NCBI GenBank assembly: GCA_035295165.1
Contig: DATGJN010000085.1
Span: 34,707-98,706 of the forward strand
Reading direction: 5' to 3'
Length of the DNA stretch: 64,000 bases
Source of the DNA: a bacterium
Lineage (GTDB): Bacteria > Sysuimicrobiota > Sysuimicrobiia > Sysuimicrobiales > Segetimicrobiaceae
The notes below the pieces were generated by a model that had not been told where the DNA came from, made no database searches, and was given only the letters and a program-made list of their open reading frames with translations. Position 1 is the first letter of the stretch. Each line of letters begins with the position of its first letter. The translations under genes were made by a program, and so were the position numbers. Of the stretch, positions 6,114-61,410 are shown piece by piece.

Positions 6114-6722
6114 TCAGCCCCCGTGGCGCTCCGCCTTGTCCTGCCTCACCCGCAGCGCCCAATGTCTGCGTTCTTCCCGGACGAAGCCCCACGTCTGTAC
6201 GAGCGCCCATGCCTCGGCTTCCTGGGCCTCGTAGTCGTTCATCCGGCCGACGTGGTGCGCCAGCGCGATGTGCGCGAGCTCATGGGCGACCTCCGCGACG
6301 ACAATCGCGTCGGCTGCACGCTCCAGCATCGGCGACAGGTACAGCATTCGGGCGTGAGGGGCCCGCGGCAACACGATCTCGTCCGGCGGGTGTACGGTGA
6401 CTGGAAACGGCCACAACCCAGCTCGCATCAACGGATGGGGGATGAACCACGAAAACGAGTCTTCGTCGGACGCCGCTTGTTGGAGCAACCGTTCGTACCA
6501 GTCGTCAGGAAGTCGCCGGAGCACCTCTGCGATCGCCCGGCATCGCCGGTTCGCGTCCGGACCGCTGAATCCGCTCTCCGTAGTCGGCCAGAGCGCCGTC
6601 CAAAGGACGGTCTCGAGCGCCCGGTGGTAGGTGGGGCCTGTCCTGGCAACGCGCTCCCGCATCGCGACCCTGCCCTTCTCCGGGTTCCATTCTAGATCGG
6701 ATCGTTCATCCATCGCATTCAC
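6114..6722 (-). CDS. hypothetical protein with HExxH metallopeptidase-like motif
   Basis: A 202-aa ORF containing AEVAHELAHIALAHH (HExxH plus a downstream His), reminiscent of ImmA/IrrE-type zinc peptidases. No other domain was recognised. Confidence 0.5.
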   Translation of the reverse strand: MNAMDERSDLEWNPEKGRVAMRERVARTGPTYHRALETVLWTALWPTTESGFSGPDANRRCRAIAEVLRRLPDDWYERLLQQAASDEDSFSWFIPHPLMRAGLWPFPVTVHPPDEIVLPRAPHARMLYLSPMLERAADAIVVAEVAHELAHIALAHHVGRMNDYEAQEAEAWALVQTWGFVREERRHWALRVRQDKAERHGG

Positions 6723-7035: not shown

Positions 7036-8040
7036 ATGGAACAGCGCCTGCTCGGAAAGACAGGCCTCCGCGTCTCCGCCCTCGGCTTCGGTGCCGGCGC
7101 AGTCGGAGGCCTGTTGGTGCGCGGCGAACGCGCAGACCAGACGCGGGCCGTCGCGCGAGCGCTCGATGCGGGCATCACGTACTTCGATACGGCGCCGAGC
7201 TACGGCGACGGACGCTCGGAGGAGAATCTCGGCGCGATCCTCGGCGAACTACGCGCGTGGCGCCGCGTCGCGGTCGGCACAAAAGTCCGCCTGCAGCCGG
7301 CTGACCTCGCCGATCCGGCTGCGGCCATCAGGCGCTCGTGCGAGGCCAGTCTGCGCAGGCTGGGGTGCGATGCCGTCGACCTGCTGCAGCTTCACAATCC
7401 CATCGCCAGCAGCGCCGCCGACAACACGGTCACCGGCAGCAGCCGCCCGGTTCCGCTGGACGTGGTCACCGGTGCCGTTGCCGAGGGGATGCGCGACGTT
7501 GTGGCACAGGGGCTCGCCCGACACGCGGGTTGCACTGGCCTCGGCGACGCGCGCGCCCTGCACGCGCTCGTCGCGAGCGGCGCGTTCGCCACCGTTCAGA
7601 CCTACTTCAACGCGATCAACCCGAGCGCCGGCGTCGCGGGCGCCGCCGGCGGCGAGCAGGACTTCGCGGGACTGATCGGCGCCGCCGCGACCGCGGGCCT
7701 CGGGGTCGTTGCGATCCGCGTCATGGCCGCAGGCGCCCTGCTCGCGCGGCCGCAGCGACACCGAAACGCCGGGGATCCCGGCGCGCTGCTGGTCGACGGC
7801 GCGCGGTACAACCGCGACCTCGAACGTGCCCGCGAGATACAAGCGATCGCCGCTGAGCTCACCTACGACGGCCCGCTCGAACTCGCGCTGCGATTCGTCC
7901 TCGCCGCACCCGGGATCTCGACGGCGTTGGTGGGGTTCTCGAGCCCCGAACAGCTCGACGACGCGCTGCGCTGGACCCGCCGTGGTCCTCTTCCTCGGGC
8001 CGCGATCGACCGTGTTGTAGATCTGGCCCGCCGCCCGTGA
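7036..8040 (+). CDS. aldo/keto reductase
   Basis: The 334-aa ORF begins LGKTGLRVSALGFGAG and has the AKR signatures ITYFDTAPSYGDGRSEENLG. Confidence 0.9.
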   Translation: MEQRLLGKTGLRVSALGFGAGAVGGLLVRGERADQTRAVARALDAGITYFDTAPSYGDGRSEENLGAILGELRAWRRVAVGTKVRLQPADLADPAAAIRRSCEASLRRLGCDAVDLLQLHNPIASSAADNTVTGSSRPVPLDVVTGAVAEGMRDVVAQGLARHAGCTGLGDARALHALVASGAFATVQTYFNAINPSAGVAGAAGGEQDFAGLIGAAATAGLGVVAIRVMAAGALLARPQRHRNAGDPGALLVDGARYNRDLERAREIQAIAAELTYDGPLELALRFVLAAPGISTALVGFSSPEQLDDALRWTRRGPLPRAAIDRVVDLARRP

Positions 8041-8176
8041 AGGCCGGAGAGAACCCTCCCAGATCCGCGCGTTGGAATGCCGGGCCGCAGCGCGCTGCGG
8101 CCCGGCACCTTGTCCTGCGCAGGTGACGAACCGCGCCCGACCCGCGACCGCGGTGCCTGTGCGGTCACCGACGACG

Positions 8177-8627
8177 CCACTTGGACGTTGCCCGTGGTCG
8201 GCTTGGCGCGTTCCGTCTTCGGGTTCGTCACCTCGAGCACGCCGTCCTTGTGGACGGCCTTCGCCCCCTCGCCCTTGACCTCGCTCGGCAGCCTGCGCGT
8301 GAAGGTGCCGGCCCGAACCTCCCGGCGGTGATACGTATCCGTCGGTTCACATTCCGCCCAGCTCGCCGTGGATGGTGATGGTGCCGCTCGTCACTTGATG
8401 TTGAGGTTCTTCGGATCGATGTTCGGGAGTTCGGCTCTGACCACGACGTCGTTCTCCGTCTCGAACACGTCGACCACCGGCTCCCAGATCATCGCCGTCA
8501 TGCCCACGCGCTCCGCCCGAACGCGGCGCGTGGCGTAGAATTCATCGAGGAGCCGGTTCACGGACCACCGCAGCGGGGCCTTCACGGCCGTTGACGGGAT
8601 CCACGGATGCGGGGCTTCCGACCCCAT
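8177..8627 (-). pseudogene. Hsp20/alpha-crystallin small heat-shock protein gene disrupted by an in-frame TGA and a local double frameshift
   Basis: The N-terminal part (WEPVVDVFETENDVVVRAELPNIDPKNLNIK) stops at a TGA. The next block, VTSGTITIHGELGG, is encoded in the -1 frame. The C-terminal block YHRREVRAGTFTRRLPSEV...DGVLEVTNPKTERAKP is back in the original frame. It then continues as a long tail overlapping the AKR gene. Confidence 0.6.
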
Positions 8628-9254
8628 GCTTGGCCGGGCAACACCCGTTGCCCGATCCCTACTTCCCGTGCCCTCCGACGCCAATTCCCCTCCACCGTGG
8701 TGGGCGAGGCGCTCGCGATGATCGTCGGCACGATCGCCGGCGGAGCCGAGGTCAGTTCGCGGGACGAGTGCCAGGAGAGATTCCTCCTGGCTGCGCGGGA
8801 ATCGGAAATCGAGTGGGCGGACGCTCGGGATCGATCCGACCGCGTGCACTAAGAGCGCACCCGCACACCACTGGCTCGACGCGCCGCCGTGTCTGTCGCC
8901 CGCTGCAATCCAATCACCAGTGCCGCGCCGGGAGAAATGGCCGAAGAGCCTAGTCCTTTCGCATGAGTGGTCCGGTGACGACGCACCACCGGCTGGGAAC
9001 TAAATGCTGGGGAGCAGATTCGACGGTGACAGCCGGATGGTGATTGAGACCGATGCGAGGATCGCTCCGAAGCGGTGTTCGATGAGCAGCTCCCCATCTC
9101 TGCGTGGACGTCCGTTCCGCGCTCAACCTGCGGAGCGATCCCCCCCGCTCGAACCTCGCGGCGCCCGGCGCACGCCGGAGACGCCCCATCCCATCAGCTA
9201 GGCTAGGCGCGACAAATCGGCAGCAGGTTCCAGAACCAAAAGGAGGCGATGTAG

Positions 9255-10910
9255 GTGGGCGGCGGTAACAAGACGCGCTCCGTTCTGTATCTCGTCATCA
9301 CGGCACTGCTCGTCCTCGCGATCCCCGGGTGGTATGTGAATGCGACCGCTACGGTGGCTCACGCCCAGACCTCCGGCAACGGTGGCGGCGGCGGCGCGGG
9401 TGGTGGCGCCGGCAACGGCAACGGCTTGCCCGGTAACCCCGGGACCACCGTAGTGGGTGGCGGGACCGGCGGCTCCGGAGGGGCTGCGGGTACGACCGGC
9501 GGTAGCGGCGGGCACGGCGGCGCCGGAGGCGCGGGCGGCAGCAACAACACCAATACCTCCGGCAACGGCGGTAACGGCGGCGCGGGCGGCAGCGGCAGCA
9601 ACAGCAACAGCGACGGTGGCAACGGTGGTAGCGGCGGGGCCAGCTCAGGAGGCAGCGGCGGCACCGGTGGTGCCGGCGGAGCGAACAACGGGAACGGCGG
9701 CGCCGGCGCCGCCGGCGGCGCGGGCGGCAGTTTCAACACCAACAACTCAGGCAACGGCGGCGCGGGTGGCGCCGGCGGAGCCAGTCAGAATAGCACTGGC
9801 AATACCCCGGCCGGTGGCAATGGCAACGGGGGCGCCGGTGGCACCGGCGGCGCGAATTCCGGTGGCAGCGGCGGGACCGGTGGCGGGGGTGGCACCGGGA
9901 ACGGCAACGCCGGCGCGGGTGGCGCCGGCGGCAACGGCGGCAACGTCGGCGGCACTGCCACCGGCGGCAACAGCAATAACTCCGGAGACGGCGGTGCCGG
10001 CGGGGCCGGTGGGACCGGCGGCATCAACAACGGCGACGGTGGAAGCGGCGGGACTGGCGGAGCCGGCGTCGGCGGGAGCAGCGGCGGGACCGGCGGCACC
10101 GGTGGCGCCGGCAATGGGACCGGCGGCGCGGGCGGCACGGGCGGCGCGGGTGGTACGGCCAACAACACCGCCTCCGGCAACGGCGGTGCGGCTGGCGCCG
10201 GCGGAGCCGGCGGCAATACGAACGGCGGCGGCGGCGCGGGCGGTCTCGGCACGACAGTCGCCGGCGGTAACGGAGGAGCGGGTGGTAGCACGAACGGGAC
10301 CGGTGGGGCCGGCGGCGCCGGTGGTGCCGGCGGGAACGCGAACATCGGTCAGACGACCGGGCCAGGGGCGCTGGGCGGCTCTGGGAATGGCGGCGCCGGC
10401 GGCAAGGGCGGTGCCGGTGGAAGCAGCAATGGCATCGGTGGGACCGGTGGGGCTGGCGTAAACGGCGGGGCCGGCGGGAACAGCAACGGTGACGGTGGAA
10501 GCGGCAGCGCCGGCGGCAGCGGCGGCAACAGCAACGCCAACGGCTCCGGCAACGGTGGCGCCGGCGGCAATGCCGGTGGTGGTGGTAGCAACAACGGCAC
10601 AGGTGGTAACGGCGGGGCGAGCGCCGGCGCGGCCGGCGGCAGCAACAACGGCAACGGCGGCGGCGGCGGCGCGGGCGGTGGCGGCGGCAACAGCAACACC
10701 AACGGCTCCGGCAACGGTGGGGCCGGCGGCACGGGAGCGACGGGTGGCAACAGCAACGGCAATGCGTCCGGCTCAGCCGCTGGGACGAACGAGAACGGCA
10801 ACGGCGGCGCGGGCGGTGGCGGTGGTACCGGCGGGAACAATAACGGCGGCAACTCCGGCAACGGCGGCGCGGGCGGTAATGGCGCTCCAGGCGGGAACAA
10901 CAACAACTAA
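9255..10910 (+). CDS. secreted glycine/asparagine-rich (Gly-Gly-X)n repeat protein, PGRS-like
   Basis: GTG start with a perfect AGGAGG 8 nt upstream, and an N-terminal signal peptide (LVLAIPGWYVNATATVAHA-Q). About 500 aa follow of GGAGGxGG / GNGG / NSNGNG repeats with almost no hydrophobic or aromatic residues. A perfect hairpin terminator follows. Confidence 0.75.
   Translation: MGGGNKTRSVLYLVITALLVLAIPGWYVNATATVAHAQTSGNGGGGGAGGGAGNGNGLPGNPGTTVVGGGTGGSGGAAGTTGGSGGHGGAGGAGGSNNTNTSGNGGNGGAGGSGSNSNSDGGNGGSGGASSGGSGGTGGAGGANNGNGGAGAAGGAGGSFNTNNSGNGGAGGAGGASQNSTGNTPAGGNGNGGAGGTGGANSGGSGGTGGGGGTGNGNAGAGGAGGNGGNVGGTATGGNSNNSGDGGAGGAGGTGGINNGDGGSGGTGGAGVGGSSGGTGGTGGAGNGTGGAGGTGGAGGTANNTASGNGGAAGAGGAGGNTNGGGGAGGLGTTVAGGNGGAGGSTNGTGGAGGAGGAGGNANIGQTTGPGALGGSGNGGAGGKGGAGGSSNGIGGTGGAGVNGGAGGNSNGDGGSGSAGGSGGNSNANGSGNGGAGGNAGGGGSNNGTGGNGGASAGAAGGSNNGNGGGGGAGGGGGNSNTNGSGNGGAGGTGATGGNSNGNASGSAAGTNENGNGGAGGGGGTGGNNNGGNSGNGGAGGNGAPGGNNNN
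9370..10900. repeat. degenerate tandem GGC/GGN-rich coding repeats (low-complexity DNA)
   Basis: About 1.5 kb of imperfect ggcggcgccggcgg-type repeats produces long ORFs in most frames on both strands (Gly-rich, Ala-rich and antisense Pro-rich). Confidence 0.8.
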
Positions 10911-11115: not shown

Positions 11116-14100
11116 GTGAAGACTCCTTCGACCGACGACGAGCACAACCCGCGGACACCGCTCTCCATGCTCATCGTCGGAGACCGCCCAACCGACAGTG
11201 CCCTGGTGGTCGACAAACTTCGCCAGCACGGGTTCGACGTCGAGTGGCACCGCGTGGAGCACGAGTCGGACTACCTGGCACGCCTCAGCCCTGAACTGGA
11301 TGTCATCGTGGTCGACGACGGCCTGCTGCAGGTGGACGCCCGCCGCGCGATCGCGCTGGCGAAGGACCGCAACCTCGATGTGCCGATCGTCGTGGCCGTG
11401 GCGGCGCTCGGAGACGAAGCCGAGGCGTTGGTGAGCCGGTGGGGCGCCACCGATTGCGTGGTCAAGCCACACCTGCCGCTGCTTGCGCACGTGGTGGAAC
11501 GAGCGCGGACCCACCGACGCCTGCGACACGAACAGACGCAACTCCGCCGACGCTTGGACGCGTTCGTCGAAAATAGCTACGACGCCCTCGCGTTGATCGG
11601 TGACGATCTGAGAGTTCGGTACGCGAGCCCCTCGATTCGCCGCGTCATGGGCATCGAACTCAACGATTTCGTCGGACACGAAATTCTGGAGTTCGTGCAC
11701 GCCGATGACCACGAGCAGGTCCGCCGCGCCTACGACGCGCTCCGCCGCGATCCGACCCGCACGCAGGCGTCGCTCATCAGGCACCGACACGGAGATGGGT
11801 CCTGGCGCTTGGTGGAGATCACCCGCCGCAACCTCCTCGCCGAACCCAGCGTGCGCGCCATCGTGGTCAACTTCCGGGACGTGACGGAGCGCGAAACGGC
11901 GCAGAACGCGCTGCAACAAAGCGCATCGCGGTATCGAGGTTTGTTCGAGAGGGTGCCCATCGGACTGTACCTGACCCGCACCAACGGGACGTTCGTGGAC
12001 GCCAATCCAGCGTTCCTCGAGATGCTCGGGTATCCGGACCGCGCCACCCTTCGAGGAATCAACGCGACCTCGCTGTACGTCGACCCGGGCGCCCGCGAGC
12101 GGCTCACCGAGGCGCTCGAACGCGACGGTGTCGTGACGGGGTGGGAAAGCGCGCTCCGTCGGCGGGACGGCACGATCCTCTGGGGACGAGCGAACGTGCG
12201 CGCCGTTCACGACCCGACCGGCGAGGGGGACGGCCTCGAAGGCGCCATCATCGATATCACCGACCAACGCGCCGCCGAGACCGCCCTGCGGGACAACGAG
12301 CAGCGTTTCCGCGCATTGATCGAACACGGTTTTGATATCATCCTGCTCCTCGACCGACGCGGCATCATCCAGTACGCCAGCCCCTCCGCCGAGCGCGTCC
12401 TCGGCTACGAGCCCGACGCTCTCCTCGGCCGCGACCGCCTCGAGCTCGTCCACCCCGACGACCGCGCCGAACTGCGGCATCGGTTTGCGAGCCTGGTCGA
12501 GCACCCGGACGGGCAGGCGTTCACGCAAGCTCGGCTGCGGCACCGGGACGGCACGTGGCGCTGGACGGAGTCGGTGGCGACCAACCTGCTTCATGATTCC
12601 AGTGTGCAGGCCGTGGTGGCGAACTACCGCGACATCACCGTGCGAAAGTTGGCAGAGGAAGAGAACCAGCGACGTGCGGCACACCTCGAGACGATCAACG
12701 CGATCGTGGCGGCCGCCGTGTCGGCGCGCGACCTGGGGCAACTGCTGGAGCACACGGTCGACCTGACGCTCCACGCGCTGGGGCATACGATGGGGGGCAT
12801 CTGGATCGGGACGGAACATCGGGGCAGCGGCATGTCGGCGGACGTGGGCCCGTCGATCCTGCGGGCGGCGGCGTCGCTGGGGCAGGTCCTTGACGCCTCG
12901 GAGGCCGTCGCGGACGCGCGTGCGCCCGACGCGCACGGGTTGGCATCCGTAATGAAGGGCCTCGGCATTCTCGCCTGGATCGCCGCGCCTATCCGGGCCG
13001 GGGGACGCGCGATCGGGGGCATCGCCGTGGCGTCACCGGTGCCGTGCGCGTGGCGCCCGGACGAGACTGCGCTCGTGGAGACCGTGGGACGGCAGATCGG
13101 CGAGGCGGCCGAGCGGCTGGATCTGTTGCAACGCGCCGAACGGCGCACGGCGGAGTTGTTGGCGGTCACAGACCTCGGCCGCCGGCTCCGCGAGGCGGCA
13201 AGTGTGACCGACATGTACCCCATCATCGTCGAACACGCCATGCAGGTGCTCGCGAGTGAACACGGAGCCCTCGCGCTCTTGAACGAAGACGAAGAGTCCT
13301 TCACGCGGGTGTACGCGAGGGGGGTCTCAACGGAACCGCCCGGATCGACGTTCCCCGCGGCCGGCAGTCGATCGATGGAGGTTGTGCGAACGGGCATCCC
13401 GCGTGTGGCCAAAGATATCGGCGAGGAGCAGCGTCCGCCGTGGATGGATCACTTCAGCTACCGAGACTTCGGCCCGTACCTCGTGGTGGCGGTGCGATCC
13501 GAAGCGGAGAGCATCGGGACCCTCACGCTGCTCCGACGGAAGACCGGCCAGGATCGATCGTTCAGCGAGGACGACGTGCGCGTGCTGATGGGGATTGCCG
13601 AAATCGCCGGCTCGGCCATCCGGCGAGGACGCCTGCAACAAAGCCTGGAGCAATCGTACATCGAGATGGTGCTCGCGCTAGCCCGGGCCGTGGACGCCCG
13701 GGACAGCTACACCGGCGACCACAGCGAGCGCATCGCCGCACGAGCCGTCGCAACGGCGCGAGCGCTCGGATGCACCGACGATGAGACACAGACCATCCAT
13801 TGGGCCGCGTTGCTGCATGACATCGGCAAGCTCAGCGTGCCCGATCAGATCCTCAAGAAGCCCAGCCCGCTCACGGCGGCCGAGTGGGATGTCATGCGCG
13901 AGCATCCCACGATCGGCGAACAGATCTTGCGGCCGATCGAACGGATGCATGGGGTCGCCGCGATCATTCGCCACCACCACGAACGATGGGATGGTACGGG
14001 CTATCCCGACCGTCTGCAGGGCGACGAGATCCCGCTCGGGGCCCGTATTCTCGCGGTGGCCGACGCCTACAGCGCCATCATCGATACTCGAGCGTACGAC

Positions 14101-19580: not shown

Positions 19581-20159
19581 TCATTCCTTCGGGGCGCGCC
19601 AACTACGTAGCTGTCGCTGGAATTGAAAGCGGTTCTCCAGCATGGAGAGGTCGGTCAAGTAGACCGGCGGGCCCGTGGCCTCCACTTTCGCCACAAGGGT
19701 CGTCAAGGCATTCGCCCGAAGCGCGTCATCGAACGCAGCCGTGAACTCCGCGACGGTGTGCACCGTCGACGTGCGCGGCACACCGGCGGCGGCGGCGATT
19801 CCGGCGATGTCGCTCCCGGTCGCGGTCGCCGTGGGAAACCCGCCCACGGAAAGGAGACTCTCGTTGTCAAACACGACGTGCACGAGGTTGCGCGGACGAT
19901 AGCGCGCCAAGGTGGTCAGGGCGCCCAGGTTCATCAAGATCGACCCATCCCCGTCCAGCACGACCACCTGCAACTCCGGACGCGCGAGTGCGATCCCCAA
20001 CCCCATGGAGGAGGCGAGCCCCATCGCGTGCAGCAGGTAGAAGAACCCCGGCCGATGTCCGAGCGACTGCAGCTCCGCCGACACGGCTCCCATGATCGTG
20101 ACCACGACACACCGTTCCAGCCTCGGATAGACCGCCCGCAACGCGTCGATCCGGAGCAT
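19581..20159 (-). CDS. comE: sulfopyruvate/phosphonopyruvate decarboxylase beta subunit (ComE-like TPP-binding domain)
   Basis: 192 aa with the TPP-binding GDG...N region (VVLDGDGSILMNLGAL...NES). Confidence 0.75.
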   Translation of the reverse strand: MLRIDALRAVYPRLERCVVVTIMGAVSAELQSLGHRPGFFYLLHAMGLASSMGLGIALARPELQVVVLDGDGSILMNLGALTTLARYRPRNLVHVVFDNESLLSVGGFPTATATGSDIAGIAAAAGVPRTSTVHTVAEFTAAFDDALRANALTTLVAKVEATGPPVYLTDLSMLENRFQFQRQLRSWRAPKE

Positions 20160-20196: not shown

Positions 20197-20709
20197 TTAG
20201 TCTTCCCACATCAGATCCCGGCACAACAGGAGCGCGACCGGCTTGAGCGACGACTCCGCCAACGTTTGCGCTTGTCCGATCCGATGCGCCACGTGGGTGG
20301 GCGCGTCCAACCGTTCGTAGGGGATATCGAGGGCCCGCAACACGGGCTCAGTTGCCCCGCCGCCCTCGGTCTGCCATGGATCTCGCTCGCCGAACTCGCC
20401 GCGGTAGCTGATCAGCATCAGCAGCGGGATCCGGTAGAGGCGCGCCAGCGAGACGATACCGTTCACGCTTGCGAGCAGCCCGTGGTTCTGCAGGAGCATC
20501 GCAGACTTTACTCCCGCCAGGTACGCGCCCGCAGAAATACCGACCCCTTCTTCCTCCTTGGCGAGACGCACGAGAATCATCTCCGGGTCGTCTTCCGCGA
20601 TCTGCAGCAGGTGCACGAGCCACGTCTCCGGGAGGGCAGAAAGCAGTCTGATTCCACAGGATTTCAACGCGTCGTAGACCATTCGCGAGTTCTTTACGGA
20701 AACCGGCAC
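20197..20709 (-). CDS. comD: sulfopyruvate/phosphonopyruvate decarboxylase alpha subunit (ComD-like TPP pyrimidine-binding domain)
   Basis: 170 aa. The N-terminal TPP-enzyme PYR domain lies directly upstream of the ComE-like gene, the split arrangement typical of ComDE. Confidence 0.75.
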   Translation of the reverse strand: MPVSVKNSRMVYDALKSCGIRLLSALPETWLVHLLQIAEDDPEMILVRLAKEEEGVGISAGAYLAGVKSAMLLQNHGLLASVNGIVSLARLYRIPLLMLISYRGEFGERDPWQTEGGGATEPVLRALDIPYERLDAPTHVAHRIGQAQTLAESSLKPVALLLCRDLMWED

Positions 20710-34572: not shown

Positions 34573-35418
34573 ATGCCGTCCGTTGCCGACAAACGCCGCG
34601 TGTTTCGCCGGCTCCATGAGTCCGGATGCTTTGTCATTCCCAACCCCTGGGACGTCGGGACGACGCGCTACCTCCAGCATCTCGGGTTCAAGGCGCTTGC
34701 GACCACGAGCGCGGGGGCGGCGTTCTCGATGGGGCTGCCCGATGCGGACTGGGCACTGACGCGAGATCCGATGCTTGCCCACATCCGCTCGATCGTGGAC
34801 GCGGCTGATGTACCCGTGAACGCGGACTTCGAGTCGGGGTATGCAGACGAGCCCGCGGAACTTGCCCAAAACGTGCTGCGGTGCGTCGAGACAGGCGTTG
34901 CAGGGCTGTCAATTGAGGATTCGACCGGCGACGCATCGAGGCCGCTGTATCCGTTCGACCTTGCCGTGGCCCGCATCCGCGCGGCGCGCGCCGCGATCGA
35001 TCAGGTTGGTGGCGATGTGTTGCTCGTCGGCCGGACTGAAGGGTTCATCGCCGGGGCACCCGACCTTGACGAAACGCTGCGGAGGTTGAAGGCGTATGCG
35101 ACGGCTGGTGCCGATTGTCTGTACGCGCCCGGGATTCACACGCGCGAGCAGATCCGGGCGGTGGTCGAGGCAGTGGCGCCGAAGCCGGTCAATCTCCTGA
35201 TCGGCGGCGCGATCGGGCTGACGGTCAACGACGCGGCAGATCTCGGAGTTCGTCGGATCAGCGTTGGCGGTGCGCTTGCGCGGACCGCCTGGCGCGGGTT
35301 CATGCGCGCGGCGCGGGATCTCGCCGCCGGGAAGTTCGACAGTTTTTCGGACGCAGCGTCGGGAGCCGATCTTAACCGCCTGTTTACCGACGACGCAAAA
35401 CGCCGCTTGCCATCCTAG
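34573..35418 (+). CDS. isocitrate lyase / PEP mutase family protein (methylisocitrate lyase / oxaloacetate decarboxylase-like)
   Basis: TIM-barrel ICL/PEPM blocks (GCFVIPNPWDVG, ADFESGY, GLSIEDS). The KxCGH motif of true PEP mutases was not seen. Confidence 0.8.
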   Translation: MPSVADKRRVFRRLHESGCFVIPNPWDVGTTRYLQHLGFKALATTSAGAAFSMGLPDADWALTRDPMLAHIRSIVDAADVPVNADFESGYADEPAELAQNVLRCVETGVAGLSIEDSTGDASRPLYPFDLAVARIRAARAAIDQVGGDVLLVGRTEGFIAGAPDLDETLRRLKAYATAGADCLYAPGIHTREQIRAVVEAVAPKPVNLLIGGAIGLTVNDAADLGVRRISVGGALARTAWRGFMRAARDLAAGKFDSFSDAASGADLNRLFTDDAKRRLPS

Positions 35419-35615: not shown

Positions 35616-36092
35616 ATGCGACTGTACTTGGTTCACCATGCCGAGGCGAAACGAGAAGACGAAGACCCTGCCCGGCCTCTCACAGCGCTGGGCGTGCAGG
35701 ACGCCCGCAGGGTCGCCCGCTATGCTACGAAGCAGGGACGTGTGCGCGTCGGCCGGATCTTCCACAGCGGCAAGACTCGTGCGGAGCAAACGGCCAGGGT
35801 CTGGGCGGAATCTCTGCTCGATGCCCAGGTTGTCCACGTCGATGATCTCGGCCCGCAGGCTGACCCGACGATCTGGGCAGAGCGCCTGGCCACGGAGACC
35901 AGCGATGTGATGCTCGTCGGCCACTTCCCCCATCTGGCGAGGCTCGCGGCGCGACTCCTGTGTGCGCACGATGGCGAGGTATTGACGCCGTTCAACGGCG
36001 GGATCACCTGCTTGGAACGGACCGGTTTGGGTCGCTGGGCGATCCACTGGATGCTCGCTCCCGACGTCATTGACGATGAATCAGGCCGGTGA
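35616..36092 (+). CDS. sixA: phosphohistidine phosphatase SixA (histidine phosphatase family)
   Basis: N-terminal RHG-type motif (LYLVHHAEA) and C-terminal His (LVGHFPHL). 158 aa. Confidence 0.8.
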   Translation: MRLYLVHHAEAKREDEDPARPLTALGVQDARRVARYATKQGRVRVGRIFHSGKTRAEQTARVWAESLLDAQVVHVDDLGPQADPTIWAERLATETSDVMLVGHFPHLARLAARLLCAHDGEVLTPFNGGITCLERTGLGRWAIHWMLAPDVIDDESGR

Positions 36093-57024: not shown

Positions 57025-57750
57025 TCAGCGTTCCGCGCGGCGCGGTTCGCCGCCTCCATCGAGCCCGTACGACAGGATGTCCTCCAGGGCGCTGGATATG
57101 TGCTGATGCATGAGCTGCCCGGCATCGGCGCCGTCGCGCGCTGCAATCAGTTCGATGAGCCGGTGATGTTCCTCGATCGCGCGCACCGGCCGTCCAATGA
57201 TACGGATGGTTCGCGCCACCAGCATCTCGCTCTGCGATTGAAGCTGGCCCATCACGGCGGCCAGGTACGAGTTCCGAGCCGCGCGCATGATGGCCGCGTG
57301 CAGGTCACGGTTATAGACTCGGTAGGCGTCCATGTCGCCGGCGGCCAGCGCGGCTTCCCCCACGGACTGGTGTTCTCGCAGCCACGTGATCTCGTCTTCC
57401 GTGATGCGCGCGCACGCCAGGCGGACGCTGAGACTTTCGAGCGCGGCCCGAATCTCGTAGAGCTCCTTGATCTCCTGCTTGGTATGCTCCCGCACAAACC
57501 AGCCCTGGTTCGGTCTCTTGATCGCCAGTCCATCGCTCTCGAGGCGCTGCATCGCTTCCCGAACCGGCGTCGTGCTCACTTCAAGCTGCCGCGCAATGGC
57601 TTCCGGGCGCAGCGGCGCTCCAGGCTCGATCCGCCTGCTGACGATACTGTTCAGCAGCGCCTGGTAGACTCGTGCGCCCAGCGGCAGGCTGTTCGACAAC
57701 GGCTCAAGCGCCTGGGACTGGCTGCCGTTGGCGGGCTTACCACTTGGCAT
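57025..57750 (-). CDS. GntR family transcriptional regulator (FadR/FCD subfamily)
   Basis: N-terminal winged HTH (LRPEAIARQLEVSTTPVREAMQRLESDGL) plus an FCD C-terminal domain. Confidence 0.85.
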   Translation of the reverse strand: MPSGKPANGSQSQALEPLSNSLPLGARVYQALLNSIVSRRIEPGAPLRPEAIARQLEVSTTPVREAMQRLESDGLAIKRPNQGWFVREHTKQEIKELYEIRAALESLSVRLACARITEDEITWLREHQSVGEAALAAGDMDAYRVYNRDLHAAIMRAARNSYLAAVMGQLQSQSEMLVARTIRIIGRPVRAIEEHHRLIELIAARDGADAGQLMHQHISSALEDILSYGLDGGGEPRRAER

Positions 57751-58591
57751 AGACGGCCTTTACGTCAGTGAAGACGTCTCTCGCGGTGGGGCCGATGGAG
57801 AACGCTCCCTGTCCAGATTCCCTTCGGCCGCCGAACGGCACGCACGCCTGGCTTGCCGTTCCGTGGCTCAGGTGGATGATCCCAGCGTCGATTCCCGCAG
57901 CGAACTTGTGTGTCAACTCCGTGCGCGAGGTGAACGCCGCCGCCAGACCGTACCGCGTGTCGTTCGCAACCGCGATGGCTTCATCCGCGTCCCGTACGCG
58001 GATCACCGGCAGGATGGGCCCGAAGATCTCCTCGCGCGCCAGGGCAGACATGACGAACACGGCGGAGCGGGGTGTCAGCGACGCCGGCTTGAACACCACG
58101 GTATTGCCGTACGCGATGGCCGGCGCGATCTTCCGCACGGGGGTGATGACCGGAACATTCCAGGGGTTGATGGTTGCGACCACCCCGAGCGGCTCCAGGA
58201 CGGTGTGGCAGGAAACGCTCGTGCGCTCACTCGGAAATGTCTGTCCCAAGGGACATCTGGCCTGGCCGGCCATGTACCGCGCCACCACCACGGCCCGGGA
58301 CACCTTGCCCACGGATTCGCTGAGCGCTTTTCCCTGTTCCAGCATGACGACCTCGGCAAGATCGCTCTTCGAATCCTCCAGGAGCTGCGCGGACCGGTAG
58401 AGTGGCGCACCCCGCTGCGGTCCTAGCGTTCCCGCCCAACCAGGGAATGCGGCAGCGTCGACGTGAGCCGGTCCGGATTGGGGGAACTGGCCCAATTCCT
58501 GTTCGGGATGGGCGGGGCTATGGGTCGCATAGTCGCTCCCCGTCCCGGGTGGCACCCAGTCTCCGGCAATAAAATTAGCGTACGGCTGCAT
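57737..58591 (-). CDS. aldehyde dehydrogenase family protein carrying a ~200-aa in-frame internal deletion (probably non-catalytic or a pseudogene)
   Basis: The ALDH N-terminal half (EPLGVVATINPWNVP, GNTVVFKPASLTP) joins directly to the C-terminal EEIFGPIL...YGLAAAFTS...PFGG. The catalytic ELGGKSP / Cys region and the Rossmann GxTxxG are missing. 284 aa versus the usual 480-500. Confidence 0.7.
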   Translation of the reverse strand: MQPYANFIAGDWVPPGTGSDYATHSPAHPEQELGQFPQSGPAHVDAAAFPGWAGTLGPQRGAPLYRSAQLLEDSKSDLAEVVMLEQGKALSESVGKVSRAVVVARYMAGQARCPLGQTFPSERTSVSCHTVLEPLGVVATINPWNVPVITPVRKIAPAIAYGNTVVFKPASLTPRSAVFVMSALAREEIFGPILPVIRVRDADEAIAVANDTRYGLAAAFTSRTELTHKFAAGIDAGIIHLSHGTASQACVPFGGRRESGQGAFSIGPTARDVFTDVKAVYAKW

Positions 58592-58600
58592 GCGCGTCTC

Positions 58601-59764
58601 TCACTGCAGCGTCTGCCGGAGGATCCGCGTCATGTCGTCGACGCCCGTGCGGCGCGGGTTCACCGGGACGTTGCCGCTCGTCATGGCCTCTTCAACCACC
58701 GGGCGGACATGCTCCGCGCGCACTCCGTAGCCCGACAGGTCCTTCGGCATGCCGATATCGCGCGCCAACTCCCGCACGGCGCTGACCGCGCGGGCGGCCG
58801 CCTCCACACGCGAAAGATGCTCGACCCGTTCGCCGAGCGCGCGCGCCACATCCACGAACCGGTCCGGCGCAGCCACATAGTTGAACTCCATGACCGCCGG
58901 CAGTGTAACCGCCAGCACAATGCCGTGCGGCACGTGGAGGTCCCAGCTTCCGAGCGGCATCGCCAGGGCGTGCGCCAGCCCGAGACGCGTCGGGTTCATG
59001 GCGATGCCGGCCATGGTGGCGGCCAGCATCATGGCGTAGCGCGACTCGCACTTGCGCCCGTTGAGGGTGGCGCTGCGCAGGTGCCGGCCGATCAGCTCGA
59101 TGGCCCGCAGCGCAAGCGACGCCGAAATCGGTTGGCAGGCGTTGTTGGTGTAGCACTCAACGGCATGGGCGAGCGCGTCCATACCGGTGGCCGCGGTCAG
59201 CGTCGGCGGCAGTCCCAACGTCAGGTCGGGATCGCAGAGAGCCACCGCCGGATAGATGAGTGTGCTGCCGATCGCCACTTTTGTGCCGCTGCCCTCGTCC
59301 GTGAACACCGCCCACAGCGTGACCTCGCTCCCCGTGCCGGCCGTTGTGGGGATGGCGATCATCGGAAGCGGCCGGTTACGGATCTTGTGGAGGCCGATGT
59401 ACGACAGCGCGGGTCCTGGGTTCGTGGCGAGCGCCGCCACCGCCTTGGCCGTGTCGAGCGAGCTGCCACCGCCGACGCCGATCACGACATCGGCGGCGCG
59501 TCGCTTGAACTCGGCGGTGGTCTCGTCGATCAGGACCGACCCCGAATCCGGCTTCACGCGGTCGCACACATCGAATCCGATGGCGGCGTCTTTGAGGATG
59601 CGCATGACGTCTTCAAGAATCCCGGCCGCCGCGAGCCCCGGATCGGTCACCACGAAGGCGCGGGTGCCGCCCAAGGCTTTGATCCGCTCCGGAAGCGTCC
59701 GCAGCATGCCGCAGCCGAAATGTATGTCGGTGGGCACCGGGAAGAAATTAACCGGGATTTCCAT
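58601..59764 (-). CDS. iron-containing alcohol dehydrogenase
   Basis: The internal start is MEIPVNFFPVPTDIHFGCG. Motifs GGGSSLDTAKA and the His-rich metal site (LAHAVECY, HGIVLA) are present. Confidence 0.85.
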   Translation of the reverse strand: MEIPVNFFPVPTDIHFGCGMLRTLPERIKALGGTRAFVVTDPGLAAAGILEDVMRILKDAAIGFDVCDRVKPDSGSVLIDETTAEFKRRAADVVIGVGGGSSLDTAKAVAALATNPGPALSYIGLHKIRNRPLPMIAIPTTAGTGSEVTLWAVFTDEGSGTKVAIGSTLIYPAVALCDPDLTLGLPPTLTAATGMDALAHAVECYTNNACQPISASLALRAIELIGRHLRSATLNGRKCESRYAMMLAATMAGIAMNPTRLGLAHALAMPLGSWDLHVPHGIVLAVTLPAVMEFNYVAAPDRFVDVARALGERVEHLSRVEAAARAVSAVRELARDIGMPKDLSGYGVRAEHVRPVVEEAMTSGNVPVNPRRTGVDDMTRILRQTLQ

Positions 59765-59879
59765 TATCCGTGTCTGAACACCTTGTGTTGAAGGAGTCCA
59801 TCTGGCTCTTCGGGGACGAGTGTGACCGACGGCCCCATGAAAGGCTGTTCGGGCCCGTCCGAAACCCCCAATCCCGGGC

Positions 59880-61410
59880 ATGGTCGCGCTGGCCACCGAT
59901 TTCTCAGACACGTCCCCCTCGGCCTCCTTCTCGTCCTTGTTGGCCGCGACGATCGCCGGCTGCTACCCTGCGGGCCCCGGCAGCATCCCAAGCCGCCGCA
60001 CGATCGCCCCGAACAGCTGCGGTGTCAGGTGCCCCTCCGCCAACAGCAACCAGTAGTATCGCGCGTGTTTCACGAGCCGGCCACCCGTCTTCATCAGACG
60101 CTGCTGCAGACTCGTCAGCGACCACGTATCAATCCGTTTCGGCAGCCCGAACCGCCGCCACAAGTTGCCCAAGTTGTACGCGATCACGCTCAGCCACAGC
60201 CGCACCTCGTTCGCCCGGAACCGGTGGCAGCTCAGCCGCGTCATCTTCACCGCCTGCTTGCCTTCCTTGATCCACTGCTCCGCAGTCCCGCGCTTATTGT
60301 AGAACCGCACCACCGCGCGGCTGTCCGCCTCCAGAGTCGTCACGATGAACCCTACTCGCGGGAACAGTTCCTCGCAGTGGAACTCGATCTTCGCCACCAC
60401 TCGCCGCGCGATCTTCCAACTCGCGGCCTGGTACCGGAAGCTCTTGTACCGGACCACCGGCTTGTGACTGGGGCGTCCGACCGGCCGCGTGAGCAACTCC
60501 GCGATGGCCCGCTCCAATGTGTCGTTCGAGGGGATGCGAATAGCGTACTTTGCGTTCCGAGTCTCCAGGGCTTCGTAGAGCTCCGGCTTGGCAAAACCGG
60601 CATCGGCCCGGACGACCACGTCCTTGCCCTCCCGCTGCTGCCGCTCGAGCTCGGGCAGCAACACCTGGTCCCACTCCTCGGCGCTATGAACGTTGCCCGG
60701 CCGCAACTTCGCCGCCAGACAGTCGCCCTCCCGATTGAACAGCAGCAGCGGATGATAGCAGGTCGACTCAAAGTGCCCGTTATAGGCGCTCTGCTCCTGT
60801 TGGCCGTAGACGGGGATCTCGGTACTATCGATATCGAGCACCACCCGCTGCGGGGTGTCCATAGGATCCACCTTCGCGATCAACTCCCGGTTGATCGCAG
60901 CCAGCCCAGCGAGGTTCTCATCTTGGGTCAGCAGCTCTGTCTCGAAGGAGTGCGCCCGGGACGTCAGAGCGGCCCCGCGCTCCCAGAGCTGCTCGGCCCC
61001 GATCAGCCGGAAAGTTGGATCCTGGGAGAGGCGTTCAGCATCGTTCACGTCCTCGTACCCCGCCAATCGGCGGTAGACCGATTGCCGGACCAAGTCGGCG
61101 AGCGGGAACTGCGTGTTCGTGCCCCTCGGATCGGTCAAATGCTGCGCGATGAGTTCACTGAAGCCCAACCGCTCGTCCAGTTCGCGCACGAGGATGAGCC
61201 CGCCGTCGGAGGTGACCCGCGAGCCTTGGAATTCGATGCGGAGTCTGGGGTTAAACGAGAGCTGAAAGGGCTGATTTTGTGCTTCACCCATAGGATGCAG
61301 ACCTCTGCGGCGTCGCCATCGCGCTCAAACCCGCACAGATCAAGACGTTCGACGCATCTCCACAGTTTCCGTTCCGTCGTCACATCGGAAATCCGGGATT
61401 AAAGGACTGC
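59880..61410 (-). mobile_element. IS1380-family insertion sequence (ends approximate)
   Basis: The transposase gene is flanked by about 100 nt of non-coding DNA, wedged between the ADH promoter and the Ldh_2 gene. Clear terminal inverted repeats could not be defined by eye (weak AATCCCGG / CCGGGATT match near 59870 and 61391). Confidence 0.5.
59963..61291 (-). CDS. IS1380-family transposase (DDE)
   Basis: 442 aa. Blocks are colinear with ISEcp1/IS1380 transposases (VTSDGGLILVRELD, LDIDSTEIPVYGQQE, RADAGFAKPELYE, FYNKRGTAEQWIKEGK). Confidence 0.85.
   Translation of the reverse strand: MGEAQNQPFQLSFNPRLRIEFQGSRVTSDGGLILVRELDERLGFSELIAQHLTDPRGTNTQFPLADLVRQSVYRRLAGYEDVNDAERLSQDPTFRLIGAEQLWERGAALTSRAHSFETELLTQDENLAGLAAINRELIAKVDPMDTPQRVVLDIDSTEIPVYGQQEQSAYNGHFESTCYHPLLLFNREGDCLAAKLRPGNVHSAEEWDQVLLPELERQQREGKDVVVRADAGFAKPELYEALETRNAKYAIRIPSNDTLERAIAELLTRPVGRPSHKPVVRYKSFRYQAASWKIARRVVAKIEFHCEELFPRVGFIVTTLEADSRAVVRFYNKRGTAEQWIKEGKQAVKMTRLSCHRFRANEVRLWLSVIAYNLGNLWRRFGLPKRIDTWSLTSLQQRLMKTGGRLVKHARYYWLLLAEGHLTPQLFGAIVRRLGMLPGPAG

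Follow-up and report, generated by a model that had tools for sequence, protein, structure and literature searches.

A frameshifted small heat shock protein gene in an uncultured bacterium is probably a young pseudogene

Introduction

When a conserved chaperone gene can be read only by changing frame twice, is the break an error of the assembly, a recoded or reduced gene that still works, or the mark of a gene in decay? The question is raised by a locus in a 64,000-nt stretch of DNA (hereafter the window) from an uncultured bacterium of the Segetimicrobiaceae with 66.5% GC (GenBank assembly GCA_035295165.1, contig DATGJN010000085.1, positions 34,707 to 98,706). A preliminary description, made from the letters alone, had reported there an Hsp20 gene split by an in-frame TGA and two compensating frameshifts, and had put it down either to two local errors of sequencing or assembly or to the decay of a chaperone gene. 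Here we analyze the frame structure of this gene, its homologues, its counterparts in syntenic contigs, and its recovery in other assemblies. We conclude that it is very probably a genuine pseudogene, still fairly young, derived from a class-A-like bacterial small heat shock protein (sHSP; Hsp20/alpha-crystallin family, ~150 amino acids [aa]), and that it is being lost in its clade.

Results

An Hsp20 gene in three segments

We read the minus strand between positions 7850 and 9000 in three frames. The first segment (frame 1) begins MGSEAP, ends PKNLNIK (MGSEAPHPWIPS...VDVFETENDVVVRAELPNIDPKNLNIK), and runs directly into a TGA, as the preliminary description had it. The Hsp20 sequence then continues in the -1 frame for a short block, after which that frame meets ATG TGA and frame 1 reopens with CEPTDTYHRREVRAGTFTRRLPSEV...VLEVTNPK...VQVA (longer stretch, CEPTDTYHRREVRAGTFTRRLPSEVKGEGAKAVHKDGVLEVTNPKTERAKPTTGNVQVA). 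When the DNA is aligned to P0001, the closest intact homologue, a 1-nt gap falls exactly at CATCAA-GTGACG, which bears out the proposed entry into the -1 frame through the loss of a base; for the return to frame 1, the same alignment accommodates the inserted A that had been suggested and, equally well, a 2-nt deletion. The two compensating indels are present in the sequence, and they lie at 8394 and ~8352, a spacing of 42 to 43 nt rather than the 45 nt first given.

Beyond VQVA, frame 1 stays open for 103 further codons, up to a TAG at 7865-7863, crossing intergenic DNA and then 178 nt antisense inside the gene of a convergent aldo/keto reductase (AKR). Codon-position GC content changes at both ends of the gene. 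Past VQVA the values at codon positions 1/2/3 are flat (0.72/0.72/0.77) and coding periodicity is gone, and upstream the segment 8628-8849, which a purely mechanical open reading frame (ORF) call includes, has values of 0.78/0.58/0.69 without coding periodicity in that frame and therefore lies outside the gene. The relic occupies 8172-8627 on the minus strand, so that the span up to 8849 in the preliminary description was too long at its upstream end. The features of the locus are collected in Table 1.

TABLE 1 Features of the Hsp20 relic and its immediate surroundings (positions in the window)
Feature	Position	Strand	Details
N-terminal relic fragment, MGSEAP...NLNIK, 78 codons	8394..8627	-	Putative ancestral ATG 8627-8625, through AAG 8396-8394; sHSP profile positions 14-72, 49.5 bits; GC1/2/3 0.63/0.42/0.88
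Premature in-frame TGA	8391..8393	-	Arises from the first frameshift; in all four assemblies
First indel site, one base fewer than the intact homologue	8394..8394	-	CATCAA-GTGACG; alignment to the P0001 gene (locus L014)
Out-of-frame block VTSGTITIHGELGG, strand ending in conserved G-E	8353..8394	-	14 codons; profile positions 73-83 (vtddvLtikGe); GC3 0.87 in the -1 frame
Second indel site, read as an A inserted in GGAATG or, equivalently, as 2 nt deleted slightly upstream	8352..8353	-	Original frame restored; ATG TGA next in the -1 frame
C-terminal relic fragment CEPTDTYHRREV...AVHKDGVLEVTNPK...VQVA	8175..8351	-	Profile positions 92-148, 56.1 bits; GC1/2/3 0.64/0.52/0.89; V-Q-V (I-x-I type) motif
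Derived in-frame 6-nt deletion site	8287..8288	-	FTR--RLP versus FTRTLPLP (L055); FxRxxxLP in 8/8 aligned homologues
TCG at the ancestral stop position	8172..8174	-	TAG in L055, TAA in P0001; point mutation
Noncoding read-through tail, intergenic and then AKR antisense	7863..8171	-	Ends at TAG 7865-7863; intergenic part with flat GC1/2/3; no Pfam match
Small hairpin GGGCAAC-GGGT-GTTGCCC	8636..8653	-	Ends 8 nt ahead of the ATG, with no Shine-Dalgarno motif in the intervening sequence
Intact convergent AKR gene	7036..8040	+	PF00248; synteny anchor and selection control
Perfect 30-nt palindrome TGCCGGGCCGCAGCG CGCTGCGGCCCGGCA	8078..8107	.	Inverted repeat of 15+15 nt, 100% complementary; in the gap that separates the relic from the convergent AKR gene

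Profile searches assign the out-of-frame block to Hsp20. When the three segments are spliced, the resulting protein aligns to positions 2 to 101 of the 102 in Pfam HSP20 (PF00011) with 53.2 bits (cutoff, 20.8), whereas the mechanical 152-aa ORF, which carries the N-terminal part alone, has no Pfam match, and the fragment that includes the block reaches 19.1 bits, under the cutoff; the alpha-crystallin domain is found in the artificially spliced sequence only. We also built a custom sHSP profile hidden Markov model (HMM) from 135 of the 150 best representatives, which had been retrieved with the closest intact homologue. Against this profile the spliced protein scored 122.4 bits compared to 101.8 for the frame-1 read-through, making the block worth ~20 bits; none of 1,000 shuffles of the block attained the real score (mean, 107.6; standard deviation, 3.2), and 72 out-of-frame peptides from another gene swapped into its place gave a maximum of 112.0. 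Codon-position GC agrees, with 0.60/0.53/0.87 in the -1 frame, resembling the flanking coding parts, and 0.57/0.93/0.50 in the flanking frame. The Hsp20-like character of the block, which had been proposed from the letters alone, is therefore upheld by homology.

We also considered that the TGA is read as an amino acid, through an alternative code or as selenocysteine. This was ruled out, since both homology and codon periodicity track the shifted frame and not the read-through.

Further lesions in the relic

A word-based protein search found two intact relatives, P0001 (151 aa, 61% identity; 59 to 61% to the spliced relic) and P0002 (147 aa, 47% identity). We scored lesions against these two and six other sHSPs, and polarized them by P0001, P0002, and a sister lineage represented by the syntenic contig L055 (see below). 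Most of the 150 best sHSP representatives are ~140 to 170 aa long, and the C termini of P0001 and P0002 read VQVA or VEVA followed by a stop; the relic has no uninterrupted ORF of ~140 to 170 aa that ends soon after the I-x-I motif. Its V-Q-V anchoring motif is retained, and at the next codon the TAG that follows AQVA in L055 is replaced, which agrees with the earlier remark that the native stop appeared lost. Two residues are missing from the FxRxxxLP strand that L055 and the other homologues have. Since L055 keeps both FTRTLPLP and the TAG, the 6-nt deletion and the TAG-to-TCG change are derived in the window.

In the alignment the relic accordingly lacks the G-x-F-x-R-x-x-x-L-P signature of a functional Hsp20, and it retains A-x-x-x-x-G-V-L in the form AVHKDGVL. 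Single residues have changed as well: H stands at the conserved Y of AxYxDGVL, N occupies a position of the last strand (VTNPK) where homologues have a hydrophobic residue, and the N-terminal WDPF motif, typical of this subgroup in the alignment and the custom HMM as is the C-terminal anchoring motif, reads WIPS. At the start of the relic there is no GGAG, GAGG, or AGGA at -18 to -4, a motif that 34 of the 45 called genes of this genome have; P0001 carries GGGAGGAG before its ATG, compared to GCCCGGCCAAGC in the window, with a small hairpin ahead of the latter.

The W-I-P-S residues are coded by tgg atc ccg tca acg (8590-8610, minus strand). With a G inserted behind tgg and one A taken out of "caa", the reading becomes W-D-P-V-T, of the WDPF type, at a gain of just 2.6 bits in the profile. 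WIPS could be an unproven second tiny compensated indel pair, derived from WDPV.

Truncation and absence of the gene in syntenic relatives

Three syntenic contigs (L055, L056, and L057) were found through AKR homologues at 90%, 82%, and 81% identity, respectively. L055 (~86% nucleotide identity; AKR, 90% at the amino acid level) aligns to the window over the AKR gene, the palindrome, and the C-terminal half of Hsp20 up to ~8333, after which homology jumps ~2.8 kb and resumes at window position 11151. This contig has no Hsp20 N-terminal half, and neither the small ORF that lies upstream of the relic in the window nor the whole 551-aa Gly/Asn-rich gene beyond it; its Hsp20 remnant covers profile positions 95 to 148 only and reads ...FTRTLPLPSEV...TIPKTERTKPTTVKAQVA-TAG. 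In L056 and L057 the AKR gene is separated by just 326 to 363 nt from the conserved leader of the Gly/Asn-rich gene, an interval in which profile search, tblastn, and DNA alignment detected no Hsp20 trace. On the evidence of these contigs the gene is dispensable, being truncated (L055) or absent (L056 and L057) at the same locus.

The more distant AKR relatives P0157 and P0159 are not syntenic with the window and so cannot show whether Hsp20 was ancestral at this site or was gained in the clade of the window and L055. AKR homologues at 62 to 66% identity are labeled as Thermomicrobia or Thermomicrobiales metagenome-assembled genomes. Scans of genome and metagenome contigs with the spliced protein recovered distant sHSPs of ≤45% identity only and returned neither an ortholog nor the genome that holds the window itself.

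Relaxed constraint and the possibility of a reduced function

To compare selective constraint, we calculated omega by the Nei-Gojobori method between the window and L055. The AKR gene has an omega of 0.17, with 19/19/78 differences by codon position, and the C-terminal half of Hsp20 (53 codons) has an omega of 0.56, with 8/7/10 differences; the nonsynonymous excess in the relic relative to AKR gave a Fisher P value of 0.012 in this small sample of 53 codons. Constraint on the relic is, by this codon comparison, relaxed relative to that on the neighboring AKR gene. When changes were polarized by eye via P0001, derived replacements were seen at conserved positions in both lineages (in the window, Y to H, I to N, and the deletion; in L055, Y to C, D to H, and G to C).

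An omega below 1, together with a GC3 that is still high and the fact that gene callers annotated the 78-aa N-terminal fragment as a gene in three other assemblies, would also suit a locus used in reduced form, in which the 78-aa peptide or its transcript is functional or an intact allele or paralogue constrains the relic via recombination. Several observations make this very improbable. The 78-aa product ends after the first alpha-crystallin strands and has no Pfam match on its own, its WDPF motif is degraded, and there is no Shine-Dalgarno sequence to serve it; moreover, the N-terminal half is exactly the part deleted in L055, and no other Hsp20 is encoded within the 64-kb window.

Recovery of the same lesions in independent assemblies

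We recovered the same locus elsewhere by exact-protein lookups with the AKR protein and the 78-aa fragment. The Logan contig SRR5579872_2125 overlaps the window by 8,567 bp and is 100% identical to it; JGI 3300027986 Ga0209168_10000273 overlaps by 7,581 bp with one single-nucleotide polymorphism (SNP), at 6478; and the 110-kb ENA contig ERZ27279680 k141_1870033 overlaps by 6,237 bp with three SNPs, at 7663, 7681, and 9948. The TGA, both indels, and the TCG are present in all three, and the Hsp20 region is base-for-base identical.

The possibility that the frameshifts are sequencing or assembly errors, and that the true gene is one continuous Hsp20 ORF, can be weighed directly against this comparison. 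Both indels lie at short runs (AAG|G and GGA|A, written here with the site marked), and jointly they restore the frame, a pattern that a local consensus error could produce. However, the runs are merely 1 to 2 nt long, and the identical Hsp20 sequence comes from four assemblies, drawn from no fewer than three data sets and three pipelines, that differ from one another by SNPs elsewhere; given the different pipelines and these SNPs, it is not credible that all four share a random consensus error. In the ENA contig, a MEGAHIT product with k = 141, the two indels 43 nt apart fit inside one 141-mer and, from the design of the assembler, should have co-occurred in observed 141-mers. The TAG-to-TCG change and the 6-nt deletion are also atypical of sequencing errors, and the gene is lost in relatives. 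The lengths and domain content of most other genes called in the window are ordinary (the exceptions are an aldehyde dehydrogenase and possibly a His_Phos_1 ORF, described below), so the assembly is not generally error-ridden. We consequently set aside the option of local error raised in the preliminary description and give it almost no weight, and the option of a decaying chaperone gene is the one that the additional lesions and the losses in syntenic relatives support.

Programmed recoding, an improbable alternative

Finally, the locus could encode a full-length sHSP through programmed recoding, with a -1 shift at AAG UGA and a +1 shift at AUG UGA 43 nt later. Some programmed frameshifts, that of prfB among them, have a stop codon where the shift occurs, and here a UGA of the incoming frame immediately follows each junction; the spliced product is a good Hsp20, and coding periodicity is kept in all three segments. 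If such double recoding took place, the full-length chaperone would be made only in certain conditions (heat or stop-codon starvation, for example), and selection, not chance, would have kept the frame restored. This is nevertheless the least probable of the readings that we weighed, since site 1 (C AUC AAG, before UGA) has no X XXY YYZ slippery heptamer, site 2 (GGA AUG UGA) offers tRNA-Met no re-pairing, two independent shifts would multiply their inefficiencies, every one of P0001, P0002, and the 150 listed representatives is encoded by one ordinary ORF, the shift site is not conserved among homologues and its region is deleted in the nearest relative, the stop codon and Shine-Dalgarno sequence are absent and a conserved strand has a deletion, and constraint is relaxed at a gene that syntenic relatives have deleted.

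Neighboring elements and other genes of the window

The 30-nt palindrome that separates the relic from the AKR gene is 100% conserved in L055, against an identity of 73% for the intergenic DNA around it, and it probably serves as a transcription terminator in both directions, as a hairpin that lacks a T tail. Upstream of the relic and divergent from it, a small ORF (8697-8852, plus strand) has coding-like GC content (0.73/0.48/0.81) and was called as 44 to 51 aa in the other assemblies. It has no Pfam match and no homologue but itself among 5.8 billion proteins, and it sits within the segment missing from L055, L056, and L057.

Farther along the plus strand, ~330 nt of noncoding DNA (8929-9254) precede ORF 9255-10910 and are conserved in the window, L056, and L057, with a mean column identity of 76% and near-invariant blocks GAGAAATGGCCGAAGAGCCTAGTCCTTTCGCA and TGGGAACTAAATGCTGGGG; the adjoining intergenic DNA is not alignable. 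RNAalifold predicted 84 pairs, of which 7 show compensatory changes, but with only these three sequences the covariation term was unfavorable, and there was no Rfam match. The segment may serve the Gly/Asn-rich gene as a leader or regulatory region. The product of that gene (551 aa) has a hydrophobic segment at its N terminus, beyond which extends a long sequence that is internally repetitive and rich in Gly, Asn, Ala, and Ser (GGAGG, GNGG, and NN runs). It belongs to no Pfam family, and an ORF of 551 aa lies at the corresponding position in L056. Rfam models at gathering thresholds and a tRNA scan returned nothing across the whole window, nor did consensus promoter and terminator scans of 7900-9300 or Pfam scans of the read-through tail, the overlapping plus-strand ORFs, and the small upstream ORF.

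Three other places in the window were noted for genes of unusual length or arrangement. An aldehyde dehydrogenase ORF of only 284 aa (57737-58591, minus strand), with genes for an Fe-alcohol dehydrogenase and a DDE_Tnp_1_4 transposase (58601-59911 and 59963-61291) upstream of it, aligns in two parts to PDB 2d4e_A, residues 2 to 187 to positions 25 to 215 and residues 183 to 280 to positions 404 to 501. The split alignment points to an in-frame internal deletion of ~190 residues, which in our reading removes the catalytic core, and the ORF is probably a second relic gene. The 158-aa ORF 35616-36092 (plus strand) matches His_Phos_1 at profile positions 1 to 76 of 194 only (23.6 bits) and may be truncated. 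TPP_enzyme_C (192 aa) and TPP_enzyme_N (170 aa) are encoded by separate adjoining ORFs (19581-20159 and 20197-20709, minus strand), and a PEP_mutase gene lies elsewhere in the window (~34573-35418). We did not count this pair as a broken gene; its ORF sizes are those of two-subunit sulfopyruvate/phosphonopyruvate decarboxylases, and it looks like a two-subunit enzyme of that type.

Discussion

In this study, we examined a chaperone gene whose frame is broken twice and found that a decaying gene very probably accounts for it. A 1-nt deletion after codon 78 creates the in-frame TGA, at which translation would stop just past the first alpha-crystallin strands. The second indel, 42 to 43 nt downstream, restores the frame, by chance or as part of one complex mutational event (slippage or repair). 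Since each indel by itself leads to an immediate stop, the restoration of the frame is not functional compensation. The stop codon and 6 nt of the FxRxxxLP strand are lost as well, conserved residues are replaced, and there is no ribosome-binding site. No functional chaperone would be made, and the sequence would be drifting toward deletion, as has already partly or fully occurred in the nearest syntenic relatives. The high GC3 and the good profile score indicate that inactivation is recent.

Some observations weigh against this interpretation. The strong GC3 periodicity (0.87 to 0.89) and the good profile score have been kept, as they would be in a recoded gene that is still functional. The chance that two random indels in a 450-nt gene cancel within ~45 nt is ~0.1 by our own estimate. 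An omega of 0.56 is below 1, although it is based on just 53 codons. L055 is a single 2.3-kb Logan contig (SRR6788488), and an assembly chimera could account for its 2.8-kb deletion. Lastly, the locus may still be expressed, and minor intact alleles may persist in the population.

We also compared the locus to known systems. Like bacterial sHSPs (PF00011; e.g., the class A IbpA/IbpB type of Escherichia coli), the spliced relic has a full alpha-crystallin domain with the AxxxxGVL, G-x-F-x-R, and C-terminal V-x-V (I-x-I type) motifs in ~150 aa; unlike them, it has two frameshifts, a premature TGA, a lost stop, and no ribosome-binding site, lacks two residues of FxRxxxLP, and has WIPS for WDPF. 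It is a relic of the Hsp20 family and not a working member. Among programmed frameshift genes, prfB undergoes a +1 shift at CUU UGA C and dnaX a -1 shift at A AAA AAG. The relic resembles these genes in having a UGA at each frame junction, but it has no slippery sequences, would need two opposite shifts at unconserved sites, and carries other disabling lesions.

The locus also resembles ordinary bacterial pseudogenes. Bacterial pseudogenes are rapidly purged by deletion (Kuo & Ochman 2010, PMC2916853), and a bias of pseudogene deletions to 3n lengths has been reported (Danneels et al. 2018, PMC6054270). The relic has 1- to 2-nt indels with premature stops, a 3n deletion, relaxed constraint, and deletion in relatives, and it differs from such pseudogenes in no respect of kind, the one mild oddity being that its frameshifts cancel within 43 nt. 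Judged from its sequence, the locus is a bacterial pseudogene, with disabling lesions relative to intact homologous sequence (P0001, P0002, and L055) that are found in independently confirmed DNA.

The relic is an ordinary feature with little importance beyond annotation. Positions 8172-8627 (minus strand) should be annotated as an Hsp20 pseudogene and not as a 78-aa or 152-aa hypothetical protein, and the spurious overlapping ORFs of 84 aa at 8077-8331 and 125 aa at 7863-8240 should be dropped. The locus also demonstrates that comparison of independent metagenome assemblies can settle whether a frameshift is real or an error without recourse to reads. Taken with its relatives, it neatly illustrates, on a small scale, the way in which related lineages lose a gene that they can do without, with point indels in one, partial deletion in another, and complete absence in others.

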